A stretch of 64,000 bases of DNA from IMG/VR virus record IMGVR_UViG_3300050336_000035, positions 32,001-96,000 of that record; one strand, given 5' to 3'. The DNA comes from a virus. Taxonomy: Duplodnaviria > Caudoviricetes. The notes under the pieces were generated by a model, which had not been told where the DNA came from, made no database searches, and saw only the letters and a list, made by a program, of their open reading frames with translations. The translations under genes were made by a program, and so were the position numbers. Shown in pieces: positions 839 through 58,470 of the stretch; position 1 is the first letter of the stretch, and every line of letters begins with the position of its first letter.

Positions 839-3568
839 ATGAAATTTAAAAGGCATAAACTTTTTGATACTGGTATAATAGTTTATGATGGCGAATATAG
901 TAATATAAAATATAGAATCGTAAAAAGAGATAATGTATGGATACTCATGAGATTAAACAAAACTACCAATAAATATTATGATACTTTATGGTCATCAGCA
1001 GGAAAGTTGGCAGTATTTAAAAAATATATGATTGAATTAATTGCAAGTAATAAAATATAATGGAGGTTTTAAAATGAAAATTATAAAAGTATCTCAGAAT
1101 CCTTTTCGTAAGCATGAAGTTAAAAATCTGCCAAAAGACGCAGAATATAGACAACAAAGTATAAATGATAATGAAGTTTATTATAGTGAAACTAAACAAA
1201 GCTATTACGAAATAATAAAATAATATAAGTAAATAAAGAGGTATTTACTATGAATAAAGAAATTAAAAAGCTGATACTTGAAGGGGTTTTTATTACAGTA
1301 TGAACTATAATATGTATAATAGAATTTAATACATAGAATTCTGCTTTCATTTGGTTTTTTTAAATTTCTTGCGTGATATTAAAATAATAGTTGACAGCCA
1401 TTATTCTATCATGTTATAATGAATTATAAAATAATTTAAGGAGTGATTTAAATGAATAAATCAACAGTACAAATTAATTATGAAAAGGCAAACATGGTAG
1501 TAAATGCAATAGTTGAATGTACTTCTAATCCTGAAAACATCCAAATGTACATAGTAAGAGAATTTTACAAAGCATTTAATAATGAAAATATAGACCTTGC
1601 CTATCAGATAATAAATGAAGCATTTAACAAAAATCAAGTAGCAGGATACAAATATTTAGAATGCTGTGAACGCTGCGATAGAAAAGGCGAATTTTACGAT
1701 ATAGCAATGAAAAATCCTTTAATGAATCTAAACTAATATAAATATAAATGTTACTGTTAAAATGCATTATAACAATTTATAGTGCATTTTATAGAGTAAC
1801 ATTGTATAATATTGTTACTACTTGAAAAATGGGAAGGTGTTAATAATGAATTTGAAGACATATGAAAAGATGATGACCATTGAAGTAAAATCGACATTTG
1901 AAAAGAAAGCTATAAAAACAGAAACAACATTGAAAGCAGAACTGACTACTGATAATTTTAACTTTAAATCTATAATAGAATTTGAAAAAGAACGTCAAAA
2001 AATTGACCGTTTTATTAAAAGAATGATAAAGCAATGTCAGTATTTTGAAATGACTATAACTATATCTGAATATTCAAAGGATGAACAATACAATTGTAAA
2101 CAATTATCATTTAATCATTGGACATTTAACGGAATAGCTGATTATACTGAAAATGAGGAAGAAATGGGCGTTTATTTAAAGCCTGATATTAGATATACAC
2201 CAGAACATTTTGATGTATGGTATAATTTTACATTAGAATCTTTACCAGAAATAAATTAATAAGAGGGTGAAATCCCTCTTTTGGTTTTGATGAAATCAGC
2301 CTTTTATGTTGAAATTTGTCGAACTGTTTTTCTTTACAAATTATATTTATAATGCTATAATTTATTCATAAAATAAATTAATAAAGGAGTAATTAATATG
2401 TTATATGTTTTAAATAATAAAACCAATAAAAATAATTTTGTTGATGAAAATAAAACAGTTGATGAATTTGGAATGGAATTAATAAGCGAGATAAGAAAAG
2501 ACAATTCAGAGCAGATGCTTTCTGTTAGTTTTGGATGGAATAATGTTCATATAGTCGCTCATGGAACAGATTTTGACACGTGGATATATAACGATAAACA
2601 TCCAGTATTCCAAAGAGCATTAAAAAATAGTAATATTGAAATGATTACAATTAATAAATAGTGATAAAAGAAGGCTTTTATGTCATTTTTTGTCGAACAA
2701 TTTTTCTTGACATATTATATTTATAATGTTATACTTAATTCATAAAATAACTTGTGGAGGTGCTTTAGTATGGCATTAACTGGTGAAAATTTTTTAAGAA
2801 TAGACCGTCATAATTCTACTATAAATAACTTAAAAGGTAAAATTAATAAAGTAAAAAATGAATTTGATAGTTATATGAGAGTACAATATAATAAAGAAAT
2901 GGGTTATATAGATGGTGAGCCAGATACAGATATTTTTGTCAAATGTCATAAGTTTGAAAAAAGAATTGAGCGTTTAGAATACTTATTATATTGTGCAGAG
3001 TATGAAGAAAATAGAAGGAGAAACTGGAATTAATATACCTGAGCCTTGCAAGAGTATAAAACTTGTAAGGCTTATTTGATGTTAGAATAAATTGTTATTT
3101 ATATATTTACGATATCGGTTTGATATGGTAAAATTAATTATAGACTTCGGACGGAAGCGTGTGAGGAAACACTTAACCTGCCAATTTTTAAGTTATTTGA
3201 TATAAATATAATTATGAGATAATTACCTATTGAATTTAATAATATAATATGGTAATATATATACATGATAGTTAATACATATTTAGGAGGGTGAGAACAT
3301 GCTAAAAGAATTAAAAGAAAAAACATATCAGAATTTTTATATCAATGAAGAAAATGAAATAGTTGGAATAGTTACACCAAAGGAAAAATGGAAAATCAAA
3401 GAACCAGCAGAATTGCAAGCATATTACATAGATAAAATATACAAACTAAAAAGCGGAATGCAAGTACAATTTGTATCTGAAAGAATAAGAAAGTTAGAAA
3501 AACAATTAACTCAGCTAACAAGAGAAATGAATAAAAGATGTACAATGAATGTTGAAGCCGTAAATTAA
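839..3568 (+). other. Run of small hypothetical early genes (839-1060, ~1074-1223, 1452-1736, ~1846-2259, 2398-2661, ~2770-3033, 3299-3568)
   Basis: ORF track, SD sites and several sigmaA-like promoters; no recognisable motifs. Confidence 0.7.
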
Positions 3569-4170
3569 TATGGCTTTTCTTTTATCTTAAATATATCAAG
3601 TCCGTATAAGTCATTTTAAGCCATTATATTAATATCAGTAATATAATAAGCCTTGCGGAGTGCTAAAACGGTTTAAAAGGATTCTAGGCAGTATCTAATA
3701 TAAAAACCACATAAAATGTTGTTTTCAATCACAAATTAAGCTACCCTAAAAAACTGGGTAGCTTTTTTATTTTACATCAGCCGAGCGTATAAAATCAAAG
3801 TCACAGAATCGCTTTAAAACGATTTTTAGGGCATAGGTAATATAATTAGTATGCAGAGATTTTATAAACGCTTAAAAAGGCTAATAATACATTGTATTTA
3901 TTATTAATATTATTTTTGTAACATAGTTGTATTTTTCCAATAATAAGCATATAATATAAATGTATTTACAAATACAATTATTTCACGTTGGGGAAGCTGA
4001 AAAAGCAATAAAAACATAAGCAAATATAAATATAAAATAAATTTAGAAAAATATTAAAAATAGTATTGACATACTAAAAGAATGAGAGTATACTAAAAGA
4101 GTACCAGAGAGGTACACAAAATAAATTTTATAAATCCTCGTACTAAGTCGAGGTAGAAAGCGAGTACAAT

Positions 4171-4587
4171 ATGACAAATTCAAAAATCGAAAGTTTAGCA
4201 AGATTCTTAGAAGTAGAAACAGAAGAAATTTCACAAGGTTACAGCGAAAATATTTTTGAATATGGTAATCAAGAATATTTAATTCTTACAGAAGAAGAAG
4301 CAGATAATGCAGTAAAAGAAAATATAGAAGAATCTGTTTGGGCGTTTAACGCAAACTTTATTCTCGACCATACTAATATTGAATGGAATTCAAGAATAGA
4401 AAAATCATTAAAAAGAATGCAAGAAGAACTTTCCGAAGATGCCAACGACTTATTAAAAGCTATGATAACAGATTTTGACGAGTTCGTTGAAGATGCAATT
4501 TCAGCAGATGGCAGAGGACATTTTTTAGCTGGTTATGATGGAGAAGAAAACGAACAAGATGAATATTATATTTATAGGAATAACTAA
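4171..4587 (+). CDS. Acidic hypothetical phage protein
   Basis: 138-aa ORF with SD; very Glu/Asp-rich. Confidence 0.8.
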   Translation: MTNSKIESLARFLEVETEEISQGYSENIFEYGNQEYLILTEEEADNAVKENIEESVWAFNANFILDHTNIEWNSRIEKSLKRMQEELSEDANDLLKAMITDFDEFVEDAISADGRGHFLAGYDGEENEQDEYYIYRNN

Positions 4588-4588
4588 A

Positions 4589-6698: not shown

Positions 6699-6855
6699 AA
6701 CTTAAAAAATGTTTCAAGAAATATTTATGATTAGTATTGACAGACTATTATAACAGGTATATAATAGAATTATGGAATGTAAATTAATTATATTAATAAC
6801 AGAAAACAGAATGAAAGTTGAATTTGGTCATATTATGAAAGGATGGTAAAGTATT

Positions 6856-8425
6856 ATGATGAACACATTTGTTAGAGGAGAAGTTTATAACACAGTGAAT
6901 GGTATAGTTGTTGTTTTAAATGCAGAACTTAATTCAGATTATGCAATAGTAGCAAACGTAAAAGAAAGTATAAATGATGAAGTTCCTTATGTAAAAATGA
7001 TTGATTTTGATTCTAAAAAGTACTTAGAAATGGGAGCAAAACCTGTTAAGAAAAGCGATATAACTAATTTTTTAGGAATTGCGTCAAAATCAGTTGAAAA
7101 ATTAGAAAAGAAAATTACTAAATGGTTAGATAATAGACCCGAAAAAGTATGGAATGGTACTGAATGGGTAACAGTTCAATAGTTAAAATGAATATTACAA
7201 TTTATAACATATTTAATTGCTACAAAGTAGCAGAAAGAGAGTATTATTATGATGAATATGGAAGTACTTAAAGGTTCTGGAGTTAATGCTGATACTATAG
7301 AGATTATAGTAAGACATGATTCATCCGAGATATTTAAAAAGAAATATTACTATGGATATAGTGTTAGTTATAAGGCTATATTTGCCACAAAAGATAAACC
7401 TCTTGACAAAGACCTCATACAAGATATTGCACAACAGTATAATATACCTTCTGAAAGTATTATATATGGTCAAGGAGTAAACGTATTCAAGGGTTAATTG
7501 TTATAGAAGGTGGATTTGGTCACATAACAAATTTAAGGAGTGCTTAACAATGGAAATACCGAAATATATAATAGAACTGCTTGAACGTTCAAAATATTCA
7601 TATGATAAAAGTCTTTCCAAGAATGAAGATTATGCAGTAGGCTATACAATAGAAATACACAAAAGAACAGAATATGCATATGTATCTACATTAAATGAAG
7701 AAATTGAAAAATTACAAAAATTTGTAATTAAGAATAACAGTGACTGCAAAATATTATCTATACCTAAAGAGACACATTACAATGACCAGTATGCAGTAAT
7801 TACAATCTTTGACCCGATAATGAAACATTTAGAACAGTATATAAAATAAGATTTTTATTATATTAATAAAGGAGATTAAAAATATGTTTAAAATTGAAGT
7901 TGTTGCAAGGATTTATTATACTTGTAATTTATCAAATGAGGATGAGAAGAAAGTGATAAATTATATTAAAGAAAATTATGAAGAATTTAAATTTATGAGT
8001 GAAAAAGATAAAATACTTAAAGCTGTAGAAGAGTTATATTCAAATAACAAAATAGATGTATATAAAAATTCTACCGAAAGCGATATGTCTACAGAGGAAT
8101 TTAACTGGTCTGAGTTTGAAGAAAGAGACGCTGAGGATATTATATCTGGTAAATAATTGCATAAAACAAGGTATTCATCCAGAAATTAAGGAGGTTTAAA
8201 ATGAATAAAGTTAAGACATCTAATGACTTTGAATTATTTACAAAAATTTATATTACAGGACATGATGGTGAATGTTCCATTAGTGAAACAATAAAAGATT
8301 TTGAATCACATAGAGAAGACTTTGAATTTAATTTTAACAACAACGACATAATTAATGTATTTAAGAACTTGGAGAGTAAAAAGCAGATTCAAAAAAGAAC
8401 GAATGATATTTATTATGTGTGGTAA
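6856..8425 (+). other. Five small hypothetical genes (6856-7182, 7249-7497, 7550-7849, 7884-8156, 8201-8425), each bracketed by dyad sites
   Basis: ORF track; sites at 6811, 7188, 7503, 7841, 8161, 8433. Confidence 0.75.
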
Positions 8426-8540
8426 TAACATGATGAAAGTATAATTTCATTCAAAAATTATTTTAATATTTTATATTGACTTTATTAAAATAATTTGATA
8501 TTATATAAACATAAAATAATTCTAAAGGAGAGATTACATA

Positions 8541-12579: not shown

Positions 12580-12849
12580 TATAATTATATGATAGAACGA
12601 GTATTTTAATTAGTATTTTGTTATTAAAATAATTTATAATAACTATTGCATATTAGATTATTATTTGGTATAATATAGTAAAGAGATGAAAGGTGGTACA
12701 TAAATATGAAACTTTGCAAATTGTGTAGTAAAGATATAAGTGAAAGACATCATTCAGCAAAATATTGTGTAGAATGTGCTATAAAGAAGAATTTAGAAGA
12801 TACATATAATAGAAATTGTAAAGACTGTAAAACCAGATATTGTAAATAG

Positions 12850-12948
12850 AATTATGTTATGAAAGAACAGATTTATTCAAATATTTCTATTTGATTTGTG
12901 GTATCTCTAATTATTTAGGCTTAACCATAAGCATATAAATCAATGCTT
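12850..12948 (-). ncRNA. omegaRNA-like guide RNA L1 (scaffold ~12870-12948, putative guide reading leftward)
   Basis: Inverted homolog of the RNA downstream of tnpB; three stems; own consensus promoter. Confidence 0.75.
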
Positions 12949-15226: not shown

Positions 15227-15322
15227 AGGCTTTGATTTAATGCCTGTGGTTAAGCGTACTTTAGTACAGATACCATTAATTGCTTTAAAAAGTGAATGAA
15301 TCAGTAGTTTTATTTCGTTAAA
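15227..15322 (+). ncRNA. omegaRNA-like guide RNA R1 (scaffold ~15227-15302)
   Basis: AGGC..GCCT, GGTTAAGCGTACTTTAGTACAGATACC and terminal hairpin, conserved with 50105-50184. Confidence 0.75.
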
Positions 15323-15856
15323 ATAGTTAAAAGCAACCCATTGTGGTTGCAAAACACAATAGCAACCAAATATTATTGCGGAGGTGAATAATAATGAATA
15401 TCAATGAAAATAACTTGAAAAACTATGTTGGATTTTCTGATGAGCAATGGAAAGAAGCGAGACCTTTAATAATAGGTATAGCTAACAAATCAAATAAAAA
15501 TTATAGTGAAATATTAAAGATATTATTAGAAATTGCAAAAGCAATTAAAGGCGAAGAGATGTAAAAAGTTATTGATATTAATATAATAGTATGTTATAAT
15601 TGTATTATAAAATAAATTGAAAGAAGGTATTACATATGAAGGACGTTAAAAGTAGTTCATTAAAACCATTAGAAATTTGCGAATATGCTAGTACTTGTGA
15701 ACATACATGTAATGGTAAGAATGAACAGAGGGATTGTACCTTTAGTTGTGGATTAAGACGAGGTTTATTAATGTGTGACGGTTATGATATTAAATTTGGA
15801 TTACAATAGAAGAAAGGATTTATTCACTAATAAAATAAATTGGGAGGTACATAATA

Positions 15857-16420: not shown

Positions 16421-16465
16421 TACACAATGAAAGATAGATTTGGTAACGAAAGGAGAATAAAATAA

Positions 16466-16903: not shown

Positions 16904-17439
16904 ACATCAATATAAATACATGGGATTTTTAAATTATGAGGAAGGTACATTTCATACATTTTATTGTAAGAATTGTAACTATTTAAAATTAAGGAAAACA
17001 TTATAGAAACGATATTTTATCATGTTTGGAGGATAAGGAATGTTAGCTACTGAAGGAATTAAAATTGAAGGAAATAAAGTTATTATTAAGGACGAATTAA
17101 CTAAAACAGCTTATAGAGTTGATTTTGATTACTTGGTGGATATTATTCGTACTAAGGTTGCTAAAAATAAATTAGAGCCAACTATAGAAAAACAGAAAGG
17201 AATTCAATGGTATGATTAATATGGATTTCGTAAAAAATGCAAATAAAGCAATTTGCATTGATAATACTGATACTCAATATTTAACATTAAATAAAAAGTA
17301 TTATGTACAAGAAACTTGTAATGGTAATTGCTTAACATATAATGATGAAGGAGTATTACATAATTATTGCATTGATAGATTTAAATTATTAGCTTAAAAT
17401 GGTTATTTGGTATTAATATAATTATAGGAGGAAAATAAC

Positions 17440-18123: not shown

Positions 18124-18171
18124 TAGTGTTATGAAATGTGAAATTTATGAACAATTGGGAGGTATAGAATT

Positions 18172-21100
18172 ATGTTAGTTACTAATAATATAAAAGTTGG
18201 AGACAAAATGTATTTTAAAACAAGTAGAAATATAGGAACAATAAAAAATATTGAAATAGGAGAATGGGAGTCTCCTCATGGTTCATGTAGCATAATAGAA
18301 TATATTAAAAATTTTGAAGTAGATATAGATGGCAAAATCTTTAATATTAATCCAGATGATAGAGATATAATGTTTAAAAAAGATTTGGAATATGAAATAT
18401 CTAAACTTGAAAAATATAAAAAGATACTTGAAAAAATGTGACAAAAGACGGAATTTATCATGAAATTTACAAAGGTTTATGATATACTATTTCTATCTCA
18501 ATTATCAAGGAGTTAGTCCTATGCCAAAATGTCAATTTTGCGGTAAGCAAATTAATTGGATAAAAACTAATACAGGTAAGTCAACTCCTGTGGAATTAGA
18601 GCCTATTAATGTTGTTGAAAATAAAAATGGTGATACTGTTATAGTTACTGATAAAGGACAAGTCATTAGAGGTAATATTGTTGGTGACGCTAATGAAGAA
18701 GGATATTATATAGGCTATGAAAGTCATATAGTTAAATCACCTTATTGTAAGAAACCTGATTAATGATTTTTAATTAAATAATTAAATACAAAAATAATTT
18801 ATTTTATATATTGACATACTTATTATAAGGTGCTATACTATAGATGTGGTAAGAAATTACAGATTGGAGTGTTAAATATGACTTATGATGAAGTTGAAAA
18901 GACAATTAATATCCTTAGAAATAAAGGAATGTTAATAGATATTAATCTTCCAATTAAAACATTAAAGTTGATAGCAGAAGCATATGATATTGGGATTGAA
19001 AGTATTAAAAAAGGAAATGATGGATATATTGATTTCGGTGGCGTAATTGGTATCAAACCAATTAAAATAGTTAATAAAAATGATAAATTTGGATATGTTG
19101 AAGTTAAAATAGAAGAGTGAATTTATTAACAAAATATGTGAGGTTTATTATGGATAATGAAATTAATATATATGATATAAAAGATTCTGCTGTATTTAAA
19201 TATAGACAACATGCAATCAAAAATGCAAATATTGATATTGACACTTTACAACGAAAATTAACAGCATTGATATTAAACGCCCAATTTAAAAAACAACTTA
19301 CAACTACTAGATGGTTATATAGATTTGGAGCATTCCAAATGTATACCAATGAAGATATTTTTGAAATAGAAGACATAAGTTGGATTGATGATACTCATGA
19401 AGGTTATCGTATAACAAATGAAATGCAAGCTAATTTACGGAATACATATATTCAATTAGGATTAAATAGTAAAGGAACAAGTATGTACGAAAATGTTATA
19501 AATAAGTAAATCTATCACAAGTTCGAGGTGATTAAGTATGAAAAAATACAAAACTATTACAATAGAAAAATATAATTGGTCTGGTTCTGAAATTCTCATA
19601 GTAGATTTTCAAACTAAAGAAGAAAAGGTATTAAAGGATACAGATTTAAAATCAGTTATAAATGATTTAAATCAAGATGGTTACGTTTTATGTGGTATTA
19701 ATGGTAGAGAATATTATATGACTAAAGAAATTAGCGGATAGAAGTGCAGTTTGGTCACAAAGTATAATTATTTGGAGGATAATATTATGAAGTATAAAAT
19801 TTGGGATAAAGTTAATAAAGAATATCTTGATTTAACTAAATATTGCGTCAATGGTTTTGGAAATGTAATAACTACAAATGGACTAGTAATGATTAATCAG
19901 AACGATTTTGAAATTCAAGTTGATTTAAGAAGTTGATACCAATCGAAGATTTTGTCATGAGATAGGAGTTATATATGGATAATAATTTTATGAACCAATA
20001 TTCAATATATCGTCCAGATTATAAACCTTGGAGTTTAGTTTATATCTATAATGATGGAAGAAAAGTTGCTCAATATAGGGCAAGTTTAGAAGATATTGAA
20101 GAAGGTAAAAAGGCAAGACCATATGGAATACAGAAAATTAAAGTAAGAAAACCATGGGAATGTGAGGTTTGTGAAAAGCAAATTCAAAAAGGTGAAGAAG
20201 CAATTGTATTTACAGGTAGATATGAGTATAAAACTTATGCTCATGTAAATTGCATTAATTTTTATTAAGATAAAACTTTGATTTTATTTAACTATAGAGG
20301 AAAAATATGAAACCTGAAAAATGTTTAGAAGATGGTTGTAATAGTAAATCAGGTATGAAAGGTTATTGTGACAAACATTACATTAGACTTACAACTATAA
20401 TTAATAATCTTACTGATAGTGAAGTGGAATTAAAAAACAAATTAATTCATAAGCTTAATATACTTGATGAAATGTATCCTAAAAAAGAAAAGAAACCAAT
20501 ACTACATAATATAAGAGAAAAATATTCTGCATTTTGTTGTGTAGATGGATGTAATAGACCCCATCATTCAAAAGGATATTGCGAAAGACATTCAAGGCAA
20601 ATTGAAAAATATGGGAGATTAACTCCTGAACTTGAAAGTAAAACATTAAGACCATTGAAATTATGCAGTGTAGAAGGTTGTAATAATATACATTTAGCAA
20701 AAGGTTATTGCAATAAGCACTATATAGAATTTAGGAGATATGGGAAAATATTATAAATTACTCATTTTATAGGGTATAATCAGTCTAATGTGTACCAAAT
20801 GAAAGGAAATGATATTGTGAGTACTGTTATAGAATGGAAAAGAATTGAAGCAGGAGAATATTGGTCAAAGGATGATAGATTTCATATCTTAAAGACTTGG
20901 GATAGAATATATAATTCACATTGGGAATTATATGACAGTATAAGTAAACAAGATTATCCTTGTAATAGCTTAAAAGAATGTAAACGGCGAGCAGAATTAA
21001 TAGTAGAACAAGCATGATTCATAGATGTAGTTATTTCGCCATTTGAATATACTGTGAATATTATAATTATTAATATAATAGGAGTGTGATATTATAATGA

Positions 21101-22550
21101 AATGTCAAAATTGTAACTCAGCAGAATATCAAGATGCTTTTGATACTTGTATAGAGAATGGTCATAAGCATAGAGTTTATATATGCCCTATATGTGAAGA
21201 TATTTTTACTGAAAGGATTCTACCTAGACACAATAAATATAGGTTTAATAAAGCCAAATTAGTTGATTTTATAGGTATTACAAGTGCATCTATAACAATA
21301 TTCTTTATAACATACTATATACTTAATAATATAGGTAAATTTACAACAACTTTTTAATGATATTAAAATAATTTTTTTAAAATTTTATTGACAAATAAAT
21401 GGTATAGTGGTAATATAATAACATAAAATATAAAAAAAAATAAACCAATTCACAAAGAACTATTACATAAAAAAAGAAAGGATGTGAATTGGTGAAAGAA
21501 GACAATATAAGTAAAGCTACAGTAATTCAAAAACTGTTAGAAAGCTTAGTCCAACAAAACCCAAAGTACAAGGAGAATACAGAAGGTATACTTTACCTCA
21601 AACTTTTAAGAAATAAATTATTAGAAGGGAGAGATAAAGAGTGCCAGTAGATGATTGGAGATTAGATATGTTGGCATATACAATTAAGAAAATGCTGAAT
21701 ACATATCATGATTGGAGACATACAAATAACGGTAAAAAGCTATTAAAAGAACATAAAAAGCTTAAAATTAAGCTTAGAAATCGTTTGACAGATAGTACAT
21801 ATTATATAGAGTAAAGCCCTTTTTCATGTGTCCTCCTTTAGCAGTTTGTGGGTATCTGTAAAAACCCTCACCTCCCTAATAAGAATGGAGAAAAATAATA
21901 GGAATATGTACATAAGTAGAGATTTTACAAAACGACCTGTAACAGATTTTATAAAGAATGTGAAACCTATTTTAAATGATAATTTAATAGCTGAAGAAGT
22001 ATATAATGATATGGGGTATTGTGTGGGCTGGAATATAAAAACGTTAGTAAACAAATGAAGTATTTAGTGTTAATATTCATTAAAGGAGATATATATTATG
22101 AATAAATTTATGGTAAAAGTAACATTAAAACAAACAAACTTATCTGGTTATACATGGATTAATAATAAACCAAGTTGGGTAGATGCATATGTAGAAGTTG
22201 ACGCAGAAACATTAAACGATGCTATTGAATTAGTAAAAGAAACATATGGTGATGAAAATAAATATTGGATTAAATCATCTGAAAGTTATATGATGTTACC
22301 TCCAATTATAAAATAATAACACAAAATACTTGATTCATTTAAAAAAGAAAGGATATGAATTAACATGAAAACAGTTACAGTTATACCTGCAAAGAAAATT
22401 ACTTGGGAAAGAATTTATTCCGCTTTAGGTTTTTGGATGTATTATTCTTATGACAAAGATGGAAACAGAATTAAAACAATATATTGGTGTTGTTTGCCTT
22501 TTAAGTTTTTTAGAAAGTTTGATTTGTTTTCATACAAATGTAATCTATAA
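18172..22550 (+). other. Array of small hypothetical genes (18172, ~18521, ~18878, 19117, 19538, ~19787, 19975, ~20817, 21097, ~21906, 22098, 22365)
   Basis: ORF track, SD sites, many dyad boundaries. Confidence 0.7.
20307..20756 (+). CDS. Protein with three C-x3-GC-x6-KGYC-x2-H zinc-binding repeats
   Basis: Three repeats visible in the translation; no nuclease domain seen. Confidence 0.75.
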   Translation: MKPEKCLEDGCNSKSGMKGYCDKHYIRLTTIINNLTDSEVELKNKLIHKLNILDEMYPKKEKKPILHNIREKYSAFCCVDGCNRPHHSKGYCERHSRQIEKYGRLTPELESKTLRPLKLCSVEGCNNIHLAKGYCNKHYIEFRRYGKIL

Positions 22551-22610
22551 TATTACAGAATTCTGATTTCATAAAGATACCAAATAAATATTAATGAAAG
22601 GAGGTGTAAA

Positions 22611-23810: not shown

Positions 23811-23924
23811 GCTGAAGTAGTAGATGTGAAGGTTACTCACCTAGTTAATGACTGGTAGCCTATAGATTTTATATAGGAAAGGTTAGATAAAAATATTTGA
23901 CTTGTGACCAAAATCCTATTTTAT
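23790..23924 (+). ncRNA. Probable omegaRNA of the third TnpB, running into the dyad at 23907
   Basis: Hairpins GTGA/TCAC and CCTATA/TATAGG directly after tnpB; boundaries approximate. Confidence 0.5.
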
Positions 23925-33045: not shown

Positions 33046-33109
33046 TAAATCACTTTGTAAAAAAGTGAATGAATCAGCGATTTGATGATATATAAGAAAG
33101 GAGAAGCTT

Positions 33110-35933: not shown

Positions 35934-35973
35934 TTTCATAATAATATAATATTAAATAAGGAGATTTTAGAAG

Positions 35974-36497: not shown

Positions 36498-36531
36498 CTG
36501 TTTTAAGTGGTTTTAGATTGGAGGTGTTATT

Positions 36532-36897: not shown

Positions 36898-36941
36898 CAT
36901 AATGAAACACTTCATTTATTCAGAATGAAAAGGAAAAACAT

Positions 36942-37469: not shown

Positions 37470-38876
37470 TAGGAGGAGTTTTATGATTAAACTAAAAACA
37501 AAATGGTATAATATCATAGGAATTAGTATAGGATTGGCTTATTTTGTGTTAATGTTATTGTTGGGAGGTATGATTCATGGATAGAGTTATAGAACGTTTA
37601 TTAATTGAAAATGGACTGAAAGAAATTAATAAAAAGTTTGGTAAAATAAATTGGGAATACATAGCTCCAGATATTGATTTAATTTATGAAGGAAATAATT
37701 TCATATTTAAGTGTCCTAAAGGTATTATTAATTTCGGTTTTGAAGAAATATGGACATGGTTATATGATGAAGATTATGCAGGATGTATTCATGATTGTGA
37801 TATGTGTTTGACACCAATATGTTAAAAGAAAGGAGAATAATTATGTTTAAAATTTTTAATAAAAAAGAAAAACATCAATACTTAGAAGAAATATATAATA
37901 AATATAATTTAGTAATTAAATTAAAAGGTGCTTCATATGAAAGAACGTTTTCTACAGAAACTTCTGCAATACCAGATTCATATAGACAATTATTAGGTTG
38001 GTATCACAGCCGTATATCGGATACATATAGTTTTAGATATAAAGATGGAATATTAAGTTTTAATAGAAGTAATATTGAATATATTAATGTTTTTAAATCA
38101 CAACATACAAGAAAAATATAATAGAAAGATTATTTTATTAGAAATGAGGGTGTTTATGGGAATAAGACTTAATATATATGAGAAATCTCCATACGAGGGA
38201 TTAGGCACAGAGTTATTAAATGGAGGTTCCTTTGGTTGGGGTATTACTTCAGAATTAAATGATTGTGAAATTGTAAATAAATACAAAGATGACTGTAAAA
38301 ATAGAAATAGTTATAGTGGCTGTTTTATGTGTGAATGTTCAGATAGTGATTATACAAAAGTAACATATGAAAAATTATTAACAATAAATAAGGAAATATT
38401 ATATAGAAATACAAATATTATTAATGCATTTTGTTTAAATAGGGATAATTGTATTTTAGAAAAAGAATGTGGATTAGATTGTATATCGAATAATCATAGA
38501 AATTGTATATGGGTAAATTTTAGTTAGAATGAAAGACATATTTCATGAAGAAAGGAAATAATTAAAATGATAGAGAGAATATTTTGTGAAGATAATTCAT
38601 CTAAAAACTATGAACAATTATCTGAAGAAAGAAAGTTAAAATATCAGGAGTTTTATAAGGATACTGCATGTTGTCCTGAGAAATATGTTATATCTGTAGA
38701 TGTGGCTTCACCAAACATCAAAGACCAAAGTTGTGTAGTTAGATATAATTATGAAGAGTATTTAAAAGGTAATTTAGTTATTGATAGTGTTAAGTATTTT
38801 TAACCACTTCACGATTTGATATTGTTTTATTTAAAATTATATTGCTCATATGAGCAGAAAGATGAGGAAATTTTAT

Positions 38877-39275: not shown

Positions 39276-39365
39276 AAAGTAAATAAAATGTATTTTCTAT
39301 TGTTAATAATTTATTGGATATTAAAATAATATCTATTGACAATACTAAAATAATATGTTAATATA

Positions 39366-39701: not shown

Positions 39702-39702
39702 A

Positions 39703-39954: not shown

Positions 39955-40208
39955 AATTTAATAATATTTTTGTGTTATAAGGGATGTGATTTTAACAATG
40001 ATGTTTCCTAGAGAATTTGATTATGCTAATAGAAAGCGTAAACTATTATCTGAACGAGAAAGACGAAATATTGAAAGACGGAATAAATTGCAAGCTTTAA
40101 TAAATGATTCTGCCTCAACCGATTGTGAAAAAGCTGAAGCCAAACGAGCTTTAGAAAGAATAAGTGAATAATATGCGACTTTTATTAAAATTTAGAAAGG
40201 ATTAATAA

Positions 40209-40847: not shown

Positions 40848-41091
40848 CGTGAAATTGATAAAATGAACTTTCTATCATATTTTAAAAGGAGAAAAGAATG
40901 CTTACATATAAATGTATAATTAACAATAAAGAAGAAAAAAATATTACAAGTTTTTCTGAGCCTGAAATTGGTCAAGTAATTTTATCTCCTTCAGGTGAAC
41001 AATACGAAATTCTAAAGATAGAATTAAAAAATAATTTATATTATATTGCAACAAAATAATGCATTCATTATAAAAATAATAGGAGGTTTTA

Positions 41092-41739: not shown

Positions 41740-42627
41740 AACATGACCAAATACGAATATTATCTCAATTGATAAAACATGGCAATATACTAAAGATATT
41801 AAAGTACAAAAGTATTATTAATATTAAAATAATCAGGAAAGGAGTATATTGCTATGTTAGGAAAATTAGAAGATAAGCTAGTTGAAAAGTGTAGAGAATC
41901 CGAATCATTTGCATGGGGATTAACTGCATTTGGTATGGTTCTGATGGTTGTAATAGCAAGTTTATAAGATTACATAATTACAGGGTGGTAGGGTGGGGAG
42001 ATAAAACATATGAATGAAAAATTTTGGGAATTTATAAATAATCATTGGGTATTTTCACAAAGAGAAAAAGATATTAACTCTATGACGGGATTATTATATG
42101 AAATGAATAGAAGACATAATTATACAATAAAAGTAGATTATGAAGGAGCTTATTTAGATTTATTGTGCTTGTTTGAAGATTATGTAGAATTTGTGAATGG
42201 AAAACAGGAGGAAAATTAAATGAAGGAATGGTGTATGGCTCATCCATGGATGACATTCTTTATAATAATTGCATTTTTAATAACAATGGAAAATGTATTT
42301 GTAGTTATAAATAATAAGATAAAATTAAGAGCTATAGAAATTGAGAATAAAAAATAGGTTTGATATAGATTGGAGATTGAAGTAGATGAAACATACAGGA
42401 TTATATTGTTTAATATGTGAACCGCTTGTTGAGTTAATAGAACAACCTACTGGTATAGTAGATATATATGACCAATGGTTTTACCAAGATTATACCTGTC
42501 CTAATTGTGGAGCATATCATAGATGTTCTTCACAATCTGGTGATATGATTCAAGAAAACTTAGATATAATTGGGTAGTTAATGAATATTAGATTTTATCC
42601 TATTAATATAATAGAAAGGTATTAAAA

Positions 42628-43449: not shown

Positions 43450-44087
43450 ATCAAACTTCGATTTCATGGAAAGGACGGTAAGTATGGAAAATAATATATA
43501 TTTTATATCTACAAATGATAAACCTGTTAAATTAATAATAGAAAATCAAAATGACACAACAACAAAAACAGAGAAATATAAAAAGACATTATATGAAGTG
43601 CTAAAAAACGAATTGAGATTTAACCACACACTAAGAAGAAATTTAACTAAACAACAAATACATACAGAAAATGGTAAATTAAAACATGGAAGATTTAATG
43701 AAGTTATTAATTTCTTAATTAAAAGAGGAGTATCAAAAGAATATATAGAAACTGAAGTTAATCAAGAAAGAGAAAGAGTAGTATTTAGTACAAGAATAAA
43801 TATTCCAATCAGCAATATTTCAGACAATAGATTTGGAATTATCAATTTAACATAAAATTTCTATTTTATAACATGTAAGGAGTGATAAATATGCCATTTT
43901 TAACAGGATTGATAGGATGTTTAATAATTAGTTTATGGGTAATAGGTCTTATTAAAGGCAATGAAGTAGCTTGTGATTGGTATGGAGCTAAAGGTAATTG
44001 GTTTATTTTTATATATTTAGTGTTATCAGTTTTAATTGCTGACGGAATATTTAATATTATTACTAGAATATAGAAAGGGACTACATA

Positions 44088-44363: not shown

Positions 44364-44410
44364 AACCAAACCAAATGACACTTCTATAGCATTTAAAGAA
44401 AGGCTTTTAT

Positions 44411-46438
44411 ATGAGAAAAGATGGATTAACTGAGCAAGAAGGAAAAATAATGGATTCATTAGTAGATGCTTGGAATGAATTTATTAAATTAGATAGACAG
44501 CATCCTTGTGAAATTAATGATTTTGCAGACGGAATACATAGATGTCAATATCAATTGACTATGAGAATATTAAGAAGAGATTATCCAGAAGGATATCCAA
44601 TAAAAATATAATTCTAAAGGAGATAAATATATGAAAATTGAAATTAAAGGCGATAGTAATAGTAAACAACTAATAAAAATGCTTGCATGGATTGAATTGT
44701 TAGGTAATGTAGGGCACAGTGCTTCATTTAAAGTATTTGCTGATGGAGATGGTTCTACTAGATGGAAGTTCAAATTTGAAGATGAAGAACAACAGAAAGA
44801 GTTTGATTTATTGAGAAAAGAATTGTGTAAAGTACATATTGATGGAAATAAGGATATAGAATATTTTTCTATATAACATGATGAAACAGCTCATTTATCA
44901 TGAGTGGAAAGGATAAAAATGTTAGAAAATATGAACACAGCTAGTCCATTTTTAACAGGTATAATTGAAGGTGAATTTATGACTTATTGTTATCAAGTTA
45001 AATGTGGTAGTAAACCTATAGCATTCACAACTTTAAAAACTAAATATATTGATTTAGCGGTATCTTATGTAAAAGAGAAATACAGTCTTAATACTTATAT
45101 TGAGGAAATAGAAAATTGTCCTGAATGGAAGATTATTTATATATACAAGCATGATTATCTAATAGAAATAATTAAATACTTACCTAAGAATCCTCAAACT
45201 TCTTATGACCATTGGATAATTGGGAAAGCATGTGGATATTCAGATGATGCTATTGGCGAATTTCTTAGTAAAAGAGTTGTAAAATAATATAATAAAAACC
45301 CAATTTGCTTCTGATTTTTGGAAAGGAGAATATTATGACAGCATTAAAATTGTATAAGTTTATTCAAGAAAATGATATAGAGCTTCGTTGGGAAGATGAA
45401 GAATTAATTGCATGGGTTGGATTTCATTGTATTAGTGAATTTACAGACATGATAGGATATGATTATTTATCAGATGGAGGATTAGATGCAAATTTACAAT
45501 ATCATTGTCTTGCTTTAGATATTGTTCCTATATGTGAATACTTTGATATTGAACCTACAGATATATTAGAAAAGGAATAATAAAAACACAATGAAATTCC
45601 ATTTTCATGTGGTTTGAAAGGAGTAATTTAAAACTATGAGATTAATAACAATTGTTGAAAATAAAATAGATATTGGAGATATTTTTATTTTTTCAGATTG
45701 TAATGCATTCATGATTAGTAAATTAGAAGATTTATATTTAGCAACACAATTATTAAATAATGGAAATAGAGAGTTAGGATTTGTTGATTATTCTGACAAG
45801 AATATATATAAATTAAAAGAAAGATTATGTCATGATTACGGAACGCCAAAAAATATAGTTCATATGAAAGATGTGAATTTATCTATATTTTAGATAAAAC
45901 CATTCTTTGGTTGTAATATAGGAGACTTAATAAAGAAATTTAAGGAGAAATTGTTATGGGAATGTATACAGGAATTAGATTTAAGGGATATGTTAAACCT
46001 CAATTTAGAGAAGATTTTGAAGGAATAGCATTAAGCGGTGATTGGAATGAATCTAACGATGAAGTATTTAGAACTTTTGGTCAGATAGGTAGGTCTGGGT
46101 TTATACCATGTGGCGGTTTATCATATATGCCTGATGAATGGGAAGTGTATGATGAATCATTAAAGGGTTCATATGATTATTATCGGTTAGCAAAGGCTAC
46201 CGATGGTTTTGAAAGAACTTGGAACAAAGATACAGGTTATTGGACTTTTCAATGTAGCTTAAAGAATTATGAAGATGAAATTGAAGAATGGTTCAAAATC
46301 GTTCCATATTTTATTGATAAGATAGAGCATCTAGAATATTTCTATGAAGAATGGACGTATAGCCAACAATATGATTTAGTTGATGGAAAAATCGAATTAA
46401 TAAATGATAGATTTAGAAAATACGGATATGAAGATTAA
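44411..46438 (+). other. Small hypothetical genes (44411, 44631, ~44919, ~45335, 45636, 45956)
   Basis: ORF track, SD sites, dyads at 44370, 44881, 45292, 45591, 45894, 46446. Confidence 0.7.
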
Positions 46439-46496
46439 TATTAACATAAATCTTATCTTTTATGCACTTTTAATATTATTATAATTTTTAAGGAGA

Positions 46497-47387: not shown

Positions 47388-47487
47388 AATTTATGAATGA
47401 AAACGCTGATTCATTCACTTTTTAAAAGTGATTTATGGTATCTGAACTAATGTCCGCTTAACCAACAAGCATATTGAATCAATGCTT
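47388..47487 (-). ncRNA. omegaRNA-like guide RNA L2 (scaffold ~47408-47487)
   Basis: Homologous to L1/R1/R2 with compensatory changes. Confidence 0.75.
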
Positions 47488-50104: not shown

Positions 50105-50204
50105 AGGCATTTATTTATATGCCTGTAGGTTAAGCGTACTTTAGTACAGACACCACAAATCACTTTATAATAAGTGAATAAATAACGTGTTTTATTTACT
50201 TTTA
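50105..50204 (+). ncRNA. omegaRNA-like guide RNA R2 (scaffold ~50105-50184)
   Basis: AGGCAT/ATGCCT, GTAC/GTAC and CACTT/AAGTG stems. Confidence 0.75.
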
Positions 50205-50994: not shown

Positions 50995-51740
50995 GAAAGG
51001 AGAAAATTAATATATGATATATCAGTTTACAGCTTATTATGGAGCGTTAATAAGAGATAAGGTGATTTACTCTATGGAATTAAGCTTCAATGATTGTACT
51101 AAATTTTTAACTGAAGATATTGATAGTGAACCATATAAAGATTACATAGCTAAAAAGATTATTGCTGATGGATTCAATCCAAATGATTTCACTTTTGATT
51201 GGTTAACCAAAGAACAGTATAAAAATAAAATTGAATCAAAAGTTGATGAGAGATATGAATTTGATGAGAATAATTTTACTAAGAAAGGAATAGAATAATA
51301 TGTTTAAGAAATTAAAAATTAAGTATAAAAAGTCAAGTCAAAATGTACATATTATATGGATGACATGGGGCAAGAAATTTAGATGGATAAGTTTTGAATG
51401 TAGTACTCCTGCATGGTGGCTACCTAAATATGAGAAGTTTAATAAAGGTACTAGATTTGGATGGTTAGTATTTGCTATTGGTACAGGAGTTGTTACTAGA
51501 GAACAAATGGACGCACTTAATATGATGCAAATTCAATAATATAATGAAACAATGATTTTCTTCACTTTTTTCCTAACTAACATGGTGAGATTCCATGTTA
51601 ATATAGACTTCATATAGAGTGACTTACTATTATGCCCCTACGGGCTTTATATAGATTTAAATAATCTTATGAATATTAATATAATATGTAACACTTGACA
51701 ATATTAAAATAATATACTATAATAAAGAGGTGGTAAACAA

Positions 51741-51978: not shown

Positions 51979-53003
51979 ATGTGGATTAGAACACAGGATA
52001 GAAAAATATTAGTAGAAATTAAAACTAAAATTGAAATTATTCATGATGATGAAGATATAGATATACCAATTGGAATATTTAATTTTGATTCAGGGCTTAC
52101 ACTTTTAGGCGAATATAAAACTATGGAGAGAGCATTAGAAGTTATTGATGATATTCAACTTAAATTATCAGAATATGAAGCATTTAAGTCAAGGAATGTT
52201 TTAGAAAGTGTTGATACATGTTTTTGTATGCCGTTAGAATAGTGTACATAGAATATATGTATGATTCTGTTTTTAAAGAGAGGAATAAATTTATGAATCA
52301 CGAAACAAAAGAAATCATAATTAATAATGATGTAATCCCCGTAGATAAAGAAATGGCAGATGTAATAATTACCTTAAATAAATTAGGATATAAAACCAGT
52401 GGTTGTTGTATTGGCAATGAAGGAAATAATTCTGCATGGATAATTATTCAAGAAATAAACGAAGATAAAATGATTAACTTAATGAAAAAATTAGATAATT
52501 GTTGTTATCAGTTAACTAAGCAGTTATATAAGAAAAAATCAGATAATATAATTTATGTACAATATAAATTAGAAACACCAGAAGGGAATATACCTAATAG
52601 GATATTGTGGGTTAATCAGTGGGCAAATATTCTAGAATGGTGTGATATAGCTACACAATGTTATACAGATTATAAAACTCAAAATCAAATTATAAATTAT
52701 AATACTGTAGATAAATTATTTCAATAAAATGTTTATTTTATTTAGAGTGAGGTGATTAAAATTAAATTAATTAGTAATGTAAAATTAATATCAAATAAGA
52801 AAAATGGTAACTGGTTTTTATGGTTTACCCATAATGAAAAGCATTATTGCATCTTTTGGGAGTGTTCTAAACCTGTATGGTGGATTCCAAAGATTGATAA
52901 AAGTACTACTTATATAAGATTTGGATGGTTACTATTTTCTTTTGGTTTTGGTAAACATCCAAAAGAGAACAAGACAAAGACACTTGACAAATTATTTTAT
53001 TAA
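51979..53003 (+). other. Hypothetical genes (51979-52242, ~52293-52727, 52752-53003); 52752 is paralogous to 51300-51539
   Basis: Shared ECS.P.WW.PK...RFGWL.F motif. Confidence 0.7.
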
Positions 53004-56241: not shown

Positions 56242-56303
56242 AACCACATAAAAGGTCAGTTCTATGGCAATATTAAAATAAATATTAATGAAGGAGAAAT
56301 AAA

Positions 56304-57960
56304 ATGACACTCAAAGAATTAAATGAAATTTTTACAACTTGTAAAGAAGAATGTGCTGGTACTGGTGTAGGTTGTGTAGCAATACAAGTTCGTATGGATG
56401 GTTTTCCAGAAGATGAAATAATAGTCAATAAGTATGAAAATATAGATACAAAATTAGACTATTATAATAAAACTTATGATGAAAATTGTAATCACAAGTT
56501 TGCAAAAGGTATTCGTATTGTTAATGCAACTTGGACGTATTACTTTGATGAAATTGGTTTGTCTTTGGCAGGAGAATAAACATGACCAAATGTTAGATTC
56601 GTGTAAAGTTATTAAAATAAATTATTTATAAAGGAGATTATTATGGGTATCGGAATAAGTAATGTAAGTAGTTTTCAAATGATAAATACTAAAACTGGAG
56701 AAGTTGTATTATCAGGCAATGTTAATAATTTAAATGTAAAGGAGAATATTAAAATGGAAGAGAAATTAAACAAGTATTTAGTAGAAAATGAAATTAAGGT
56801 TGATGAAAATGGAAATTTTGAAATGTTTGTTGTGGTTGATGCAGATGATAAAGACCATACAGTAGGTACAATATTTAATGGAAAAGAAACAGAAGTATAT
56901 TCTGAAGAGAGAGCATATGAAGATTTGAAAGAAAATAATGTAGGAGGTTATATTTCTTCTAATCCTTTTTTATTTAACATACCAACGTTATTTTCATCAA
57001 AAGTTGAACCAAAAAAGAAAACTACTATCAGAGATGATTTATTAAAACTTGAAGATAAGATGTTTAAAGTATTGGTTAATGTAGAAAATATAACTGATTT
57101 AATAGGAAGAGTCGTATATGTTAATAAATATAAGGTTTTAGAAGAAATAGTTTTAAATTCAACATTAAAGTACAAAGTAAAATCAATTAGTTCGGATAAA
57201 GTTACTGTTTTACTTTACAATAGCTTAACTGAGAAATCAAAAACAATTGAAATTGATTGCAATAGCGAAGTAAATTCTTTAGAAGATGTAAAAGAATTAA
57301 TTAATAAGTATCTTGAGAATGATGAAAAGAAAGTAGCCTTAATTAATTCAATAATTGAAGATGGAGCAGAGCTATAAATTATTTTGACCAAAAGGAGATT
57401 CTATAATATTATGAATAAATTTTTTAAATGGGCAGGATTATTATTTTTTGTTGCAATTGCAACTGAACTGGTATTATACATATTAGGCAAATACACACCT
57501 TCAAATTTTAGTATAGGAACATATATGTTTATTACAGCAATTTCATTTTTAGAGATGTTTATGGAATATAGAAAGAATAACAAATAAGTTTATAATACAA
57601 ATATAAATATAATTTTAATTAAAGAAAAGGAGACTAAATAAAATGGTAAATGTAAGTGATAATTATAAGTTAGTAAACATGGAGATTGATGGTGAAGAAA
57701 GAACAGAAAGACTTGATGAAAAGCCTTGGAATGTAATGGAAGTTGAGTTTGAAGGAAAGACTACAACGATTCAGGAAGGTGATGAAATTAGGTTTGTAGT
57801 AGAAACTGGTGAAATTATTGAAGGAGTTCTCAATAAGATATCTGGTAAAGCTGAAAAGACTAAACTACAGATTAATCCCTTTGGTAAGGAATATGAACAG
57901 ATTTGGTCGGTAGTTTCAATTAAGGAAGGTACATTGAAGGTTATTGAACAGGAAAAGTAA
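56304..57960 (+). other. Hypothetical genes (56304, 56643, ~57411, 57643)
   Basis: ORF track and SD sites. Confidence 0.7.
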
Positions 57961-57976
57961 GAGAGGATGATAAAAT

Positions 57977-58228
57977 ATGAAATTAAATGAAACAGCAGAA
58001 ATGATGAATAGTGCAGATTATAAGGAAAGATTTAGAGCAGAATATTTACAGTTAAAAATAAGAATGGAAGGATTAAGTGCTATGCTTAAAAAATATAAAT
58101 CTGGTGAACTTAATTTTACTCCATCTTGTAGTTATGATTTACTAAATGGACAATATAAGGCTATGGATTTGTATGCTTCATACCTTGAAGAACGTGCAGT
58201 TATTGAAAATATTGATTTAGAATTCTAA
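57977..58228 (+). CDS. crAss001_48-like helical phage protein
   Basis: M.S.DYKERF.AEY.QLKIR...L..Q...M..Y...LEERA. Confidence 0.7.
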   Translation: MKLNETAEMMNSADYKERFRAEYLQLKIRMEGLSAMLKKYKSGELNFTPSCSYDLLNGQYKAMDLYASYLEERAVIENIDLEF

Positions 58229-58470
58229 GAAAATAAAATAATAGGAGTACATAATGAAAATGAAAGCAAATATTAAGCGTCCAATAAAACGCTGTCAATC
58301 TCCACCTATAGTATAATTATAAAAATATGTGTGTATTTATACCAATATAATGCCTATTACAAGACTTAAAAATGTATAGACATACAGAATAATGTGATGA
58401 AATGAATATTTTATCGTAAGTTAGTTAAAAACAATATTAAAATAATTTATAATAAGGAGATTACATATTT

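Follow-up and report, generated by a model that had tools for sequence, protein, structure and literature searches.

In this study, a recurrent inverted repeat was analysed in a 64-kb stretch of viral DNA (the window), which corresponds to bases 32001–96000 of the 167,493-bp virus record IMGVR_UViG_3300050336_000035, a record with terminal repeats and 26.5% G+C. The element, here called the dyad, consists of two 6-bp arms around a 6-bp spacer. It marks most junctions between accessory genes, its core is common to distant relatives of this phage and to SPbeta, and among four Bacillus phages the ends of homology blocks concentrate on it. The explanation that we favour, tentatively and at a little under an even chance, is that dyads are double-stranded, protein-marked junction elements at which genes are exchanged by relaxed short-homology recombination. 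Positions refer to the window unless preceded by G000, which denotes the whole 167,493-bp record with its own numbering.

The initial annotation had listed 62 dyads, and all 62 positions carry the 6-6-6 pattern, 46 of them in the strict half-site vocabulary and 16 with deviations at one or two positions. Searching the strict half-site words at spacings of 0–14 bp gave 46 matches in the window at 6 bp vs. 0–8 at any other spacing, and 100 dinucleotide shuffles gave 5.15 ± 2.06 matches (maximum 10); the whole genome contains 92. On these spacing and shuffle controls, an origin by chance or AT-richness was rejected, and the enrichment over a composition-matched background that the annotation had put forward as a check was obtained. 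The word list is not circular, because the same hexamers emerged 6 bp from one good half when no partner was imposed, including ATAAAA (61 vs. 6.5 expected), ATGAAA (33 vs. 3.2), ATAGAA (25 vs. 2.5) and ACCAAA (15 vs. 1.2), as well as ATAAAT and ATGAAT. A thresholded scan with a relaxed 34-bp matrix, from which the 124-site set and the scores used below were taken, returned 124 sites genome-wide vs. approximately 33 in random sequence of the same first-order composition. It recovered 60 of the 62 listed sites, with 22051 and 38803 falling under the threshold, and yielded approximately 11 further sites in the window, of which several lie within genes and are probably chance matches.

The dyad core reads A-T/C-R-R-A-W, N6, W-T-Y-Y-R-T. 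Base frequencies of the arms mirror each other, the arms are statistically equivalent and the site has no orientation. Summed over the matrix, the information is approximately 14 bits, approximately 6 bp being conserved per arm and the outer positions being weak; a faint outward symmetry, AAAA-Y-NN-R-[arm]-T-N4-A-[arm]-Y-NN-R-(T/A)4, sets A/T tracts every 10 bp. The halves are freely reassorted, as had been described, with 13 perfect dyads vs. 17.6 expected under independence. A proposed extension to CATG/GTG...CATG/CAC proved not to be general, the flanks pairing at chance level. The centre is indeed always 6 bp and highly variable: all 124 spacers are distinct, with no identical pair where approximately 2.4 would be expected by chance (an estimate), and they are GC-enriched (40–43% vs. 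26% for the genome; 43% G+C in the central four bases). Predicted folding was weak, with a mean energy of -2.4 kcal/mol for 38 nt and both arms paired in the best fold of 48 of the 124 sites. Because the halves vary independently and do not fold, the dyad is, as judged from its sequence, the signature of a dimeric protein on double-stranded DNA and not of an RNA or DNA hairpin. The favoured half-sites (ATAAAA, ATGAAA, ATAGAA) each consist of A, a stop codon and AA, and the non-stop form ATGGAA is absent (0 observed vs. approximately 7 expected if positions 3 and 4 were independent, an estimate). Right arms mirror this stop-like pattern, which may reflect the tolerance of a reader protein and not coding.

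Genome-wide, 90 of the 124 sites are intergenic, the non-coding share of the genome being 13.8%. The reported order of stop codon, dyad and Shine-Dalgarno sequence was confirmed: a stop codon usually lies 0–10 nt before or inside the left arm, and the dyad is followed by 8–12 nt, GGAGG and ATG. At many junctions the left arm itself is the actual stop codon of the upstream gene. Among junctions with gaps of 25 nt or more, dyads occupy 62–67% in the accessory stretches and 20–28% in the late arms. The statement that the regulatory core and the replication operon have none is essentially correct (0 of 8 and 0 of 4 junctions). Across six genomes of the clade, a dyad was found at 1 of 32 junctions with conserved gene adjacency vs. 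142 of 322 between genes having no homologue in the relatives. Where the intergenic region is long, the dyad is usually placed upstream of the following promoter rather than on top of it, and no promoter at a fixed distance from the dyad was found.

This placement has some bearing on an action at the RNA level, in which the dyad would weakly terminate transcription, be processed by an RNase, serve in translation or fold as a single strand in the manner of attC or repetitive extragenic palindromic elements. A position between stop codon and Shine-Dalgarno sequence fits such a role, as do the A-rich runs before and T-rich runs after the dyad, the frequent supply of the stop codon by the left arm, and an accessory region with almost no canonical terminators (3 found vs. 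2.2 in shuffles). However, the arms do not covary, folding is as weak as given above, arm statistics are symmetric on both strands, and several SPbeta dyads directly adjoin annotated stem-loop terminators and so do not replace terminators. A hairpin, terminator or attC-like fold was rejected on the lack of covariation and the weak folding, and we regard any action as RNA or hairpin as extremely improbable.

By gene content, the phage is classed as a distant, uncultured relative of SPbeta, because it has a DndB/YopQ-like gene followed by an MrpR/YopR/SroF-family gene (28560–30937), a replication block (AAA_24, YorH and helicase) and approximately 20 proteins with homologues in Bacillus phage SPbeta, including a YonO-like RNA polymerase. 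Three TnpB-like genes and an NAD-dependent ligase gene are also present in the window. This DNA was not found outside its source sample, an anaerobic-digester metagenome, and no close isolated phage was found at the DNA level. Homologues of the MrpR-like protein led to contigs that share the regulatory core, flanked by almost entirely unrelated small genes. The dyad and the same layout are enriched in relatives L008, L011, L014, G001 and G003, more weakly in L017 and L013, and the array is absent or unclear in G002, L019, L021/G004, L022 and L015, with a weak excess at most in G004. Three records were redundant, L007 being identical to the window, L010 to G001 and L023 to G003.

The core TRAAA-N6-TTTYA is common to the relatives and SPbeta. 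In 49 kb of SPbeta, TAAAA-N6-TTTTA occurs 15 times vs. 0–2 at other spacings, and the whole of SPbeta has 34 copies vs. 2 for a reversed control; 10, 20 and 15 copies were found in phi3T, SPR and Goe14, respectively (vs. 0–2 at other spacings). In these four Bacillus phages the layout is likewise stop codon, dyad and Shine-Dalgarno sequence. A description of the dyad was not found in the SPbeta literature consulted. Orthologous dyads change less than their flanks (8 of 396 vs. 50 of 880 positions), with 3 changes in 132 spacer positions vs. 5 in 264 arm positions. Between this phage and L008, at approximately 72% overall identity, all 12 spacer positions of two orthologous pairs are identical; the within-clade figures come from these two sites only, because conserved adjacent gene pairs almost never hold a dyad.

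Few blocks were obtained when the clade relatives were compared at the DNA level, because identity is approximately 70%. In the comparison with L008, a replaced segment of 2 kb is bracketed by two such points: homology is lost within a dyad remnant at 21887 and regained 3 nt into the dyad at 23907. A third boundary lies 25 nt past the dyad at 32642. Between SPbeta and phi3T, a 3.2-kb block of 99.97% identity extends from the first base of one dyad into the far arm of a second, and four more boundaries lie on dyads. For all six pairs of the four phages (SPbeta, phi3T, SPR and Goe14), 172 homology-block ends were collected, of which 33 lie within 12 nt of a dyad centre. The expected number is 2.9 for ends spread uniformly over the sequence, and 6.3 when the 97 ends that fall in or close to intergenic DNA are spread uniformly over that DNA. 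A boundary is held by 30 of 44 dyad junctions (68%) vs. 43 of 228 others (19%; odds ratio 9.2, p = 2.7e-10), junctions that are not independent since the four phages share ancestry. Within the dyad-bearing junctions, 20 of 44 boundaries are inside the dyad ± 4 nt vs. 10.2 expected. Measured from the dyad centre, blocks tend to start between -12 and -7 and to end between +3 and +9, positions to which conserved arms can contribute by lengthening an alignment by a few bases. The whole dyad, including its spacer, stays with the conserved backbone (26 vs. 7 events), and the gene between dyads is replaced. Breakpoints therefore fall at dyads, as the initial annotation had expected, at the outer arm edges and not in the N6 core. 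Its larger claim, that accessory genes are shuffled as cassettes, holds insofar as dyads delimit units of one to a few accessory genes and replacement breakpoints fall there; for the Xer/dif, Tn916 or integron chemistry that accompanied the claim, no evidence was found.

In the explanation that we favour, the dyads would form one family of protein-binding sites on double-stranded DNA, placed by SPbeta-like phages at accessory-gene junctions, and a dimeric reader other than MrpR/SroF would contact the two arms. Selection for the role of the bound protein at gene ends, such as insulation or transcription road-blocking, would keep the dyads in place. Over evolution they would come to act as the joints of the mosaic, each dyad staying with the backbone together with its own spacer while the genes between two dyads are replaced. 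Crossovers would occur in or at the arms, which would be the only sequence that unrelated cassettes share. The exchange would most likely take place by the phage's own relaxed short-homology recombination at the protein-marked junctions, a Xer or integron reaction being less likely, and the Sak4-like AAA_24 protein, which is conserved in the family, could carry it out.

Several points weigh against this explanation. None of the approximately 20 proteins shared with SPbeta is an obvious dimeric site-specific binder, and a homology of 6 bp per arm is very short, even where recombination is relaxed. A reader of the arms alone does not explain why spacers are as conserved as arms (3/132 vs. 5/264; 12/12 against L008), which seems to fit recombination specificity better. 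It is also unusual for the motif of a phage-specific regulator to be kept across phages with repressors only 26% identical. Part of the breakpoint clustering is expected, since only whole-gene recombinants survive and the dyad fills approximately 40% of a typical junction, and the shared ancestry of the four Bacillus phages, with its non-independent junctions, applies here as well. It is no less likely that the dyad is primarily a junction element bound by protein, with recombination as a by-product, than that it is a recombination site. The two models fit the data about equally well in kind; we rate the junction element just short of even and consider the recombination site unlikely.

In the second model, dyads are dedicated sites for site-specific recombination: a phage tyrosine recombinase would bind the arms and exchange strands at the spacer edges, so that cassettes move, and in one variant the unique spacers would restrict exchange to orthologous junctions. 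The window has no catalytically intact recombinase, as had been stated; the candidates are three intact-looking tyrosine recombinases of 302, 210 and 384 aa, each with the R...HxxR...H/W...Y residues, encoded elsewhere in the genome. Their presence, the 6-6-6 geometry of inverted arms with a spacing of strictly 6 bp and the concentration of breakpoints at dyads agree with this model. The uniqueness of all 124 spacers, their conservation between orthologous sites at the level of the arms and the lack of dyads in conserved operons agree with it as well. On the other hand, two sites of the same genome always differ in their spacers, which blocks classical tyrosine recombination between them, and breakpoints lie mostly at outer arm edges with the spacer remaining in the backbone. 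With approximately 14 bits only, chance sites would abound in an AT-rich host, and approximately 100 active sites per genome would be a deletion hazard. The dyad is common to the clade and SPbeta, but no recombinase is shared beyond the family level: SPbeta YopP shows no similarity to the recombinases of this phage and has Lys in place of the second catalytic Arg. Furthermore, the Xer-like gene is present in G002, which has no clear dyad array (and in G004 the excess is weak at most), no inverted segments were seen among the four Bacillus phages, and laboratory hybrids of SPbeta and phi3Ts were joined at ordinary homologous regions in 15 of 16 cases.

A related proposal has, in our estimation, a small chance of being correct, namely that dyads form a natural array of heterospecific lox-like sites, with common arms and with spacers that are unique in the genome and conserved at orthologous junctions, and that a tyrosine recombinase or a YoqL-like HNH endonuclease exchanges only the matching junctions of co-infecting relatives. 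Such exchange would replace unrelated accessory genes cleanly and cause no deletions within the genome. The phage encodes two copies of an HNH endonuclease with homology to SPbeta YoqL (50233–50994 and G000 111316–112203; 34–37% identity). It is a speculative candidate for a dyad-directed nuclease, proposed because few non-structural, non-replication proteins are common with SPbeta and the HNH protein is among them.

Operators of the MrpR/SroF repressor were the first idea for the dyads, which are probably not such operators; the idea was dropped after derivation of the SPBRE box, detection of dyads in SPbeta and the report of a monomer-bound, asymmetric SroF box. As a more general proposal, dyads would be distributed operators or road-blocks, similar to stoperators, bound by a prophage repressor that silences accessory genes in lysogens; this we hold to be distinctly unlikely. 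The obvious candidate is the MrpR/SroF-like protein (29900–30937), whose gene stands beside the DndB/YopQ-like gene in the window. This protein matches PF22822 and PF22823, hits PDB entries 8a0a and 9rd5, shows 26% identity to YopR, and has no second catalytic Arg, second His or Lys (N284, M287/S288 and S195). Dyads are absent from the lysogeny core, one lies approximately 27 to 45 nt downstream of the main early promoter start, and the presence of more than 20 repressor sites between closely spaced genes has a precedent in the stoperators. SPbeta MrpR, moreover, binds a repeated intergenic element, its peaks in chromatin affinity precipitation sequencing (ChAP-seq) being ten SPBRE boxes (PMC10516654). 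However, the SPBRE box derived here from the SPbeta promoters named in that paper, AAATACAAAWAATATGTATA, is unrelated to the dyad; SPbeta has both, and the eight dyads of its yoq region are at 0 of the 10 MrpR ChAP-seq peaks. SroF is bound as a monomer to an asymmetric 24–26-bp box that differs between SPbeta and phi3T (bioRxiv 10.1101/2025.11.27.690993), which does not fit a symmetric 6-6-6 site, and the dyad is the same in these two phages although their SroF boxes differ. The dyad is also unchanged across phages with MrpR only 26–38% identical, whereas immunity operators normally diverge; in long intergenic regions it usually precedes the next promoter; and the oriented motif ATTAAAATAAT beside promoters, described below, is a better candidate for a repressor box. 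SPBRE and dyad coexist in the same SPbeta control regions, because, at 76171 and 99498 of NC_001884, dyads lie within approximately 10–85 nt upstream of the aimR and yorE SPBRE boxes.

Two further observations concern this regulatory core. The MrpR-like protein of the clade keeps an Arg (R158 or R160, in GVRGRT) at the position of the first catalytic Arg, where SPbeta MrpR has V137/S138, and it has a 5-residue insertion there. The small minus-strand gene beside the core showed no similarity to SPbeta YopS.

Dyads could also be bound by a conserved protein of the host, such as a nucleoid-associated or architectural factor of Firmicutes enlisted by the phages at gene ends, an explanation that we strongly doubt. 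The core is the same in Bacillus phages and in an anaerobic-digester phage that has few proteins in common with them, and A/T tracts phased at 10 bp on either side of a GC-richer centre point to DNA that is bent or wrapped. The array is missing, however, from some relatives of similar habitat (G002, L019, L021, L022 and L015), and we know of no Bacillus regulator with such a box: ComK recognises A4-N5-T4, the order is reversed in the CodY box, and the boxes of Rex, Fur and LexA are different. As regards other readers, a phage HU-like protein was rejected on the absence of a PF00216 gene from the genome. Signals for the YonO RNA polymerase were rejected since dyads are mainly in early and accessory DNA although a YonO-like gene is present; in SPbeta, YonO transcribes one late operon. 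The YonO homologue (G000 11213–13927, minus strand) showed 26% identity over 580 aa in a BLAST comparison of open reading frames and was missed in a six-frame search with partial YonO.

Among known systems, those nearest in place and effect are the PeSL elements, reportedly described as 'mobile regulatory cassettes' of T4-type phages by Arbiol, Comeau and Krisch in 2010, and the conserved linker or boundary sequences at phage module junctions that Susskind and Botstein are said to have discussed in 1978. Like the dyads, these are short conserved elements at accessory-gene borders in hyperplastic regions, at the ends of swapped genes. A PeSL, however, is a promoter plus a stem-loop of 50–100 bp that acts through ordinary homology, whereas the dyad is an 18-bp, non-folding element with a site-specific spacer and is not itself a promoter. 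With dif, pdif and IMEX sites the dyads share inverted arms around a 6-bp centre and small flanked gene modules. The arms of dif and pdif are 11 bp, highly conserved and have distinct XerC and XerD sides, and pdif sites flank resistance modules of Acinetobacter plasmids; in the dyad approximately 6 bp are conserved per arm, giving much less information than the 11-bp arms hold, and the two dyad arms are equivalent, neither of them matching the XerD arm TTATGTAAACT. The shared central region of Xer/dif sites was not found within the genome, spacers being shared only by orthologous sites in relatives. Like attC sites, dyads occur as one element per gene cassette in a co-directional array, but attC works as a single strand, folded and with extrahelical bases, and depends on IntI beside attI, and dyads do not fold. 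Neither an integron-type integrase nor attI was noticed, without a search aimed at either, and the 302-aa enzyme scored 106 bits vs. a 265-bit integron-integrase cut-off. Heterospecific lox and FRT variants, which belong to laboratory work with Cre and Flp and are used here as an analogy only, resemble the dyads in having identical arms and site-specific spacers, and in them the spacer decides the partners.

The SPBRE/SroF boxes (PMC10516654; bioRxiv 10.1101/2025.11.27.690993) resemble the dyad in being repeated, intergenic and often just upstream of a Shine-Dalgarno sequence in the same phage family, and a homologue of their repressor is encoded here. They are asymmetric, approximately 20–26 bp, read by a monomer, present in approximately 10 copies at promoters and different between SPbeta and phi3T, whereas the dyad is symmetric, present in 34 to approximately 120 copies at gene ends and keeps the same core. 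The stoperators of mycobacteriophage L5 and Cluster A phages (PMC9283540) likewise recur many times across a genome between closely spaced genes, often in contact with a stop or start codon; they are 13-bp, asymmetric sites, oriented with transcription, that are bound by a monomer of the immunity repressor and vary with the immunity group, in contrast to dyads, which are symmetric, unoriented and conserved across distant phages. The array resembles linkers and PeSL in place and effect, stoperators in number and a recombinase core site in geometry, and differs from each in a defining property.

Modules with TnpB alone have dyads at both ends (12859–15313 and 47397–50195, and from G000 106003 onward), with the layout dyad, TCACTTTTTAAAAGTGA ... 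AAAAGTGA, dyad. AAAAGTGA also occurs directly before other dyads, at 32642, 33069 and 40168 and at G000 103228, 108556, 121552 and 122612. The right arm of the dyad (TTCAT/TTTAT) may be the insertion target or the target-adjacent motif (TAM) of TnpB elements.

A 92-nt unit is repeated at 82% identity (2288–2379 and 2662–2753, and also G000 27517–27570) and contains, in order, a dyad, TTGTCGAA, a -35 and a -10 element. TTGTCGAA, which we take to resemble a Spo0A box, hints that the host forms spores and that control of some accessory promoters is linked to sporulation. A second repeated motif, ATTAAAATAAT, ATTAA(A/T)ATAAT, mostly on the plus strand, had 72 matches with at most one mismatch vs. 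42 ± 6 expected; examples are at 1378, 8484, 12623, 21362, 25215, 32556, 39320, 41823, 51703, 58436 and 60889. Its copies often immediately precede the -35 TTGACA of a strong promoter, as at the main early promoter (32579), and the motif could be an UP-like element or an MrpR/SroF-like repressor box; like the phi3T SroF box, it is AT-rich and asymmetric. Within the accessory region, neighbouring GmrSD_N-like and ParB_N/HNH-like nuclease genes (9102–11250) could be a defence or counter-defence pair.

Table 1. Dyads and other features of the phage. Coordinates are those of the window unless marked G000; scores are from the relaxed matrix, and 'extra' marks dyads beyond those of the initial annotation.
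Feature	Coordinates	Strand	Score	Remarks
Dyad, extra	796..813		12.0	25 nt before ATG at 839
Dyad	1333..1350		14.5	ATAGAA-N6-TTTCAT
Dyad	2290..2307		16.8	Opens 92-nt repeated unit of dyad, TTGTCGAA and promoter
Dyad	2664..2681		19.4	Second copy of 92-nt unit
Dyad	3711..3728		14.7	
Dyad	6811..6828		18.0	
Dyad, weak	7188..7205		10.1	
Dyad	7503..7520		12.1	
Dyad	7841..7858		12.1	Upstream stop codon inside spacer
Dyad	8161..8178		17.3	
Dyad	8433..8450		18.9	Then promoter
Dyad	12592..12609		15.0	
Dyad	12859..12876		14.9	Left end of TnpB module 1
Dyad	15296..15313		18.1	Right end of TnpB module 1, after AAAAGTGA
Dyad	15806..15823		11.3	Stop codon from left arm
Dyad	16427..16444		15.2	
Dyad	17003..17020		19.0	
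Dyad, weak	17394..17411		10.3	Stop codon from left arm
Dyad	18131..18148		14.3	
Dyad	18441..18458		21.2	
Dyad, extra	19498..19515		13.5	Junction 19509/19538
Dyad	19738..19755		12.8	
Dyad	19938..19955		13.0	
Dyad	20270..20287		14.7	
Dyad	20753..20770		16.5	Stop codon from left arm
Degenerate dyad remnant (ATGGAG...)	21870..21887			L008 homology ends here; L008 has intact dyad
Listed site ACAAAT-N6-TTTAGT	22051..22068			Under matrix threshold
Dyad	22321..22338		14.7	
Dyad	22555..22572		15.2	Before TnpB gene 22611–23810
Dyad	23907..23924		16.5	Left edge of conserved regulatory core; L008 homology resumes 3 nt inside; spacer ATCCTA same in both
MrpR/SroF-like recombinase-fold repressor gene	29900..30937	+		Catalytically dead; probably not the dyad reader
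Early promoter TTGACA-17-TAAGAT, TG-extended	32579..32607	+		Next dyad at approximately +27 to +45 (estimate)
Dyad	32642..32659		11.5	5' leader of first early gene; spacer TTAACC same in L008
Dyad	32898..32915		11.8	
Dyad	33069..33086		18.5	
Dyad	33511..33528		14.3	
Dyad	34787..34804		14.6	
Dyad	35049..35066		14.7	Stop codon from left arm
Dyad	35274..35291		15.6	
Dyad	35659..35676		19.6	
Dyad	35922..35939		17.6	
Dyad	36489..36506		15.1	
Dyad	36902..36919		20.0	
Dyad	38121..38138		16.6	
Dyad	38529..38546		18.0	
Listed site ACCACT-N6-TTTGAT	38803..38820			Under matrix threshold
Dyad	39283..39300		12.5	36 nt upstream of -35 of promoter 39336–39364
Dyad	40168..40185		17.3	Stop codon from left arm
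Dyad	40858..40875		13.9	
Dyad, extra	41051..41068		13.9	Before gene at 41092
Dyad	41746..41763		17.0	
Dyad	42347..42364		16.0	
Dyad	42581..42598		11.1	
Dyad	43450..43467		14.6	
Dyad	43852..43869		15.4	Stop codon from left arm
Dyad	44370..44387		15.6	
Dyad	44881..44898		21.3	
Dyad	45292..45309		17.4	
Dyad	45591..45608		20.2	
Dyad	45894..45911		12.4	
Dyad	46446..46463		15.7	
Dyad	47397..47414		14.0	Left end of TnpB module 2, before TCACTTTTTAAAAGTGA
Dyad	50178..50195		17.6	Right end of TnpB module 2
Dyad	51544..51561		17.1	
Dyad	52724..52741		17.5	Stop codon from left arm
Dyad	56248..56265		19.2	
Dyad	56585..56602		16.4	
Dyad, extra	57387..57404		15.0	Junction 57377/57384
Dyad	58397..58414		20.1	Last before dyad-free replication operon
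AAA_24 (Sak4/YorG-like) gene, candidate single-strand annealing protein	59750..60886	+		Possible agent of short-homology exchange; SPbeta yorG annotation
210-aa tyrosine recombinase	G000 19806–20438	-		Catalytic residues present
Tyrosine recombinase, truncated copy	G000 110649–111086	+		Outside window
302-aa Xer-like tyrosine recombinase	G000 128246–129154	+		XerC 233 bits, below 335-bit cut-off
384-aa tyrosine recombinase	G000 151492–152646	-		Catalytic residues present

In phage mosaics, the sequences and proteins that decide where modules are joined are mostly unknown, and the dyad, whose core is kept between an anaerobic-digester phage and SPbeta, marks two thirds of accessory junctions and coincides with the limits of replaced genes. 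A recombination enzyme as its reader would mean a new route of gene exchange between viruses; a regulator or insulator would mean an additional level of control, common to the family, alongside the arbitrium/SroF circuit. Genetic work is feasible in SPbeta and phi3T, so the reader of the dyad, its role in expression and its role in exchange are directly testable.

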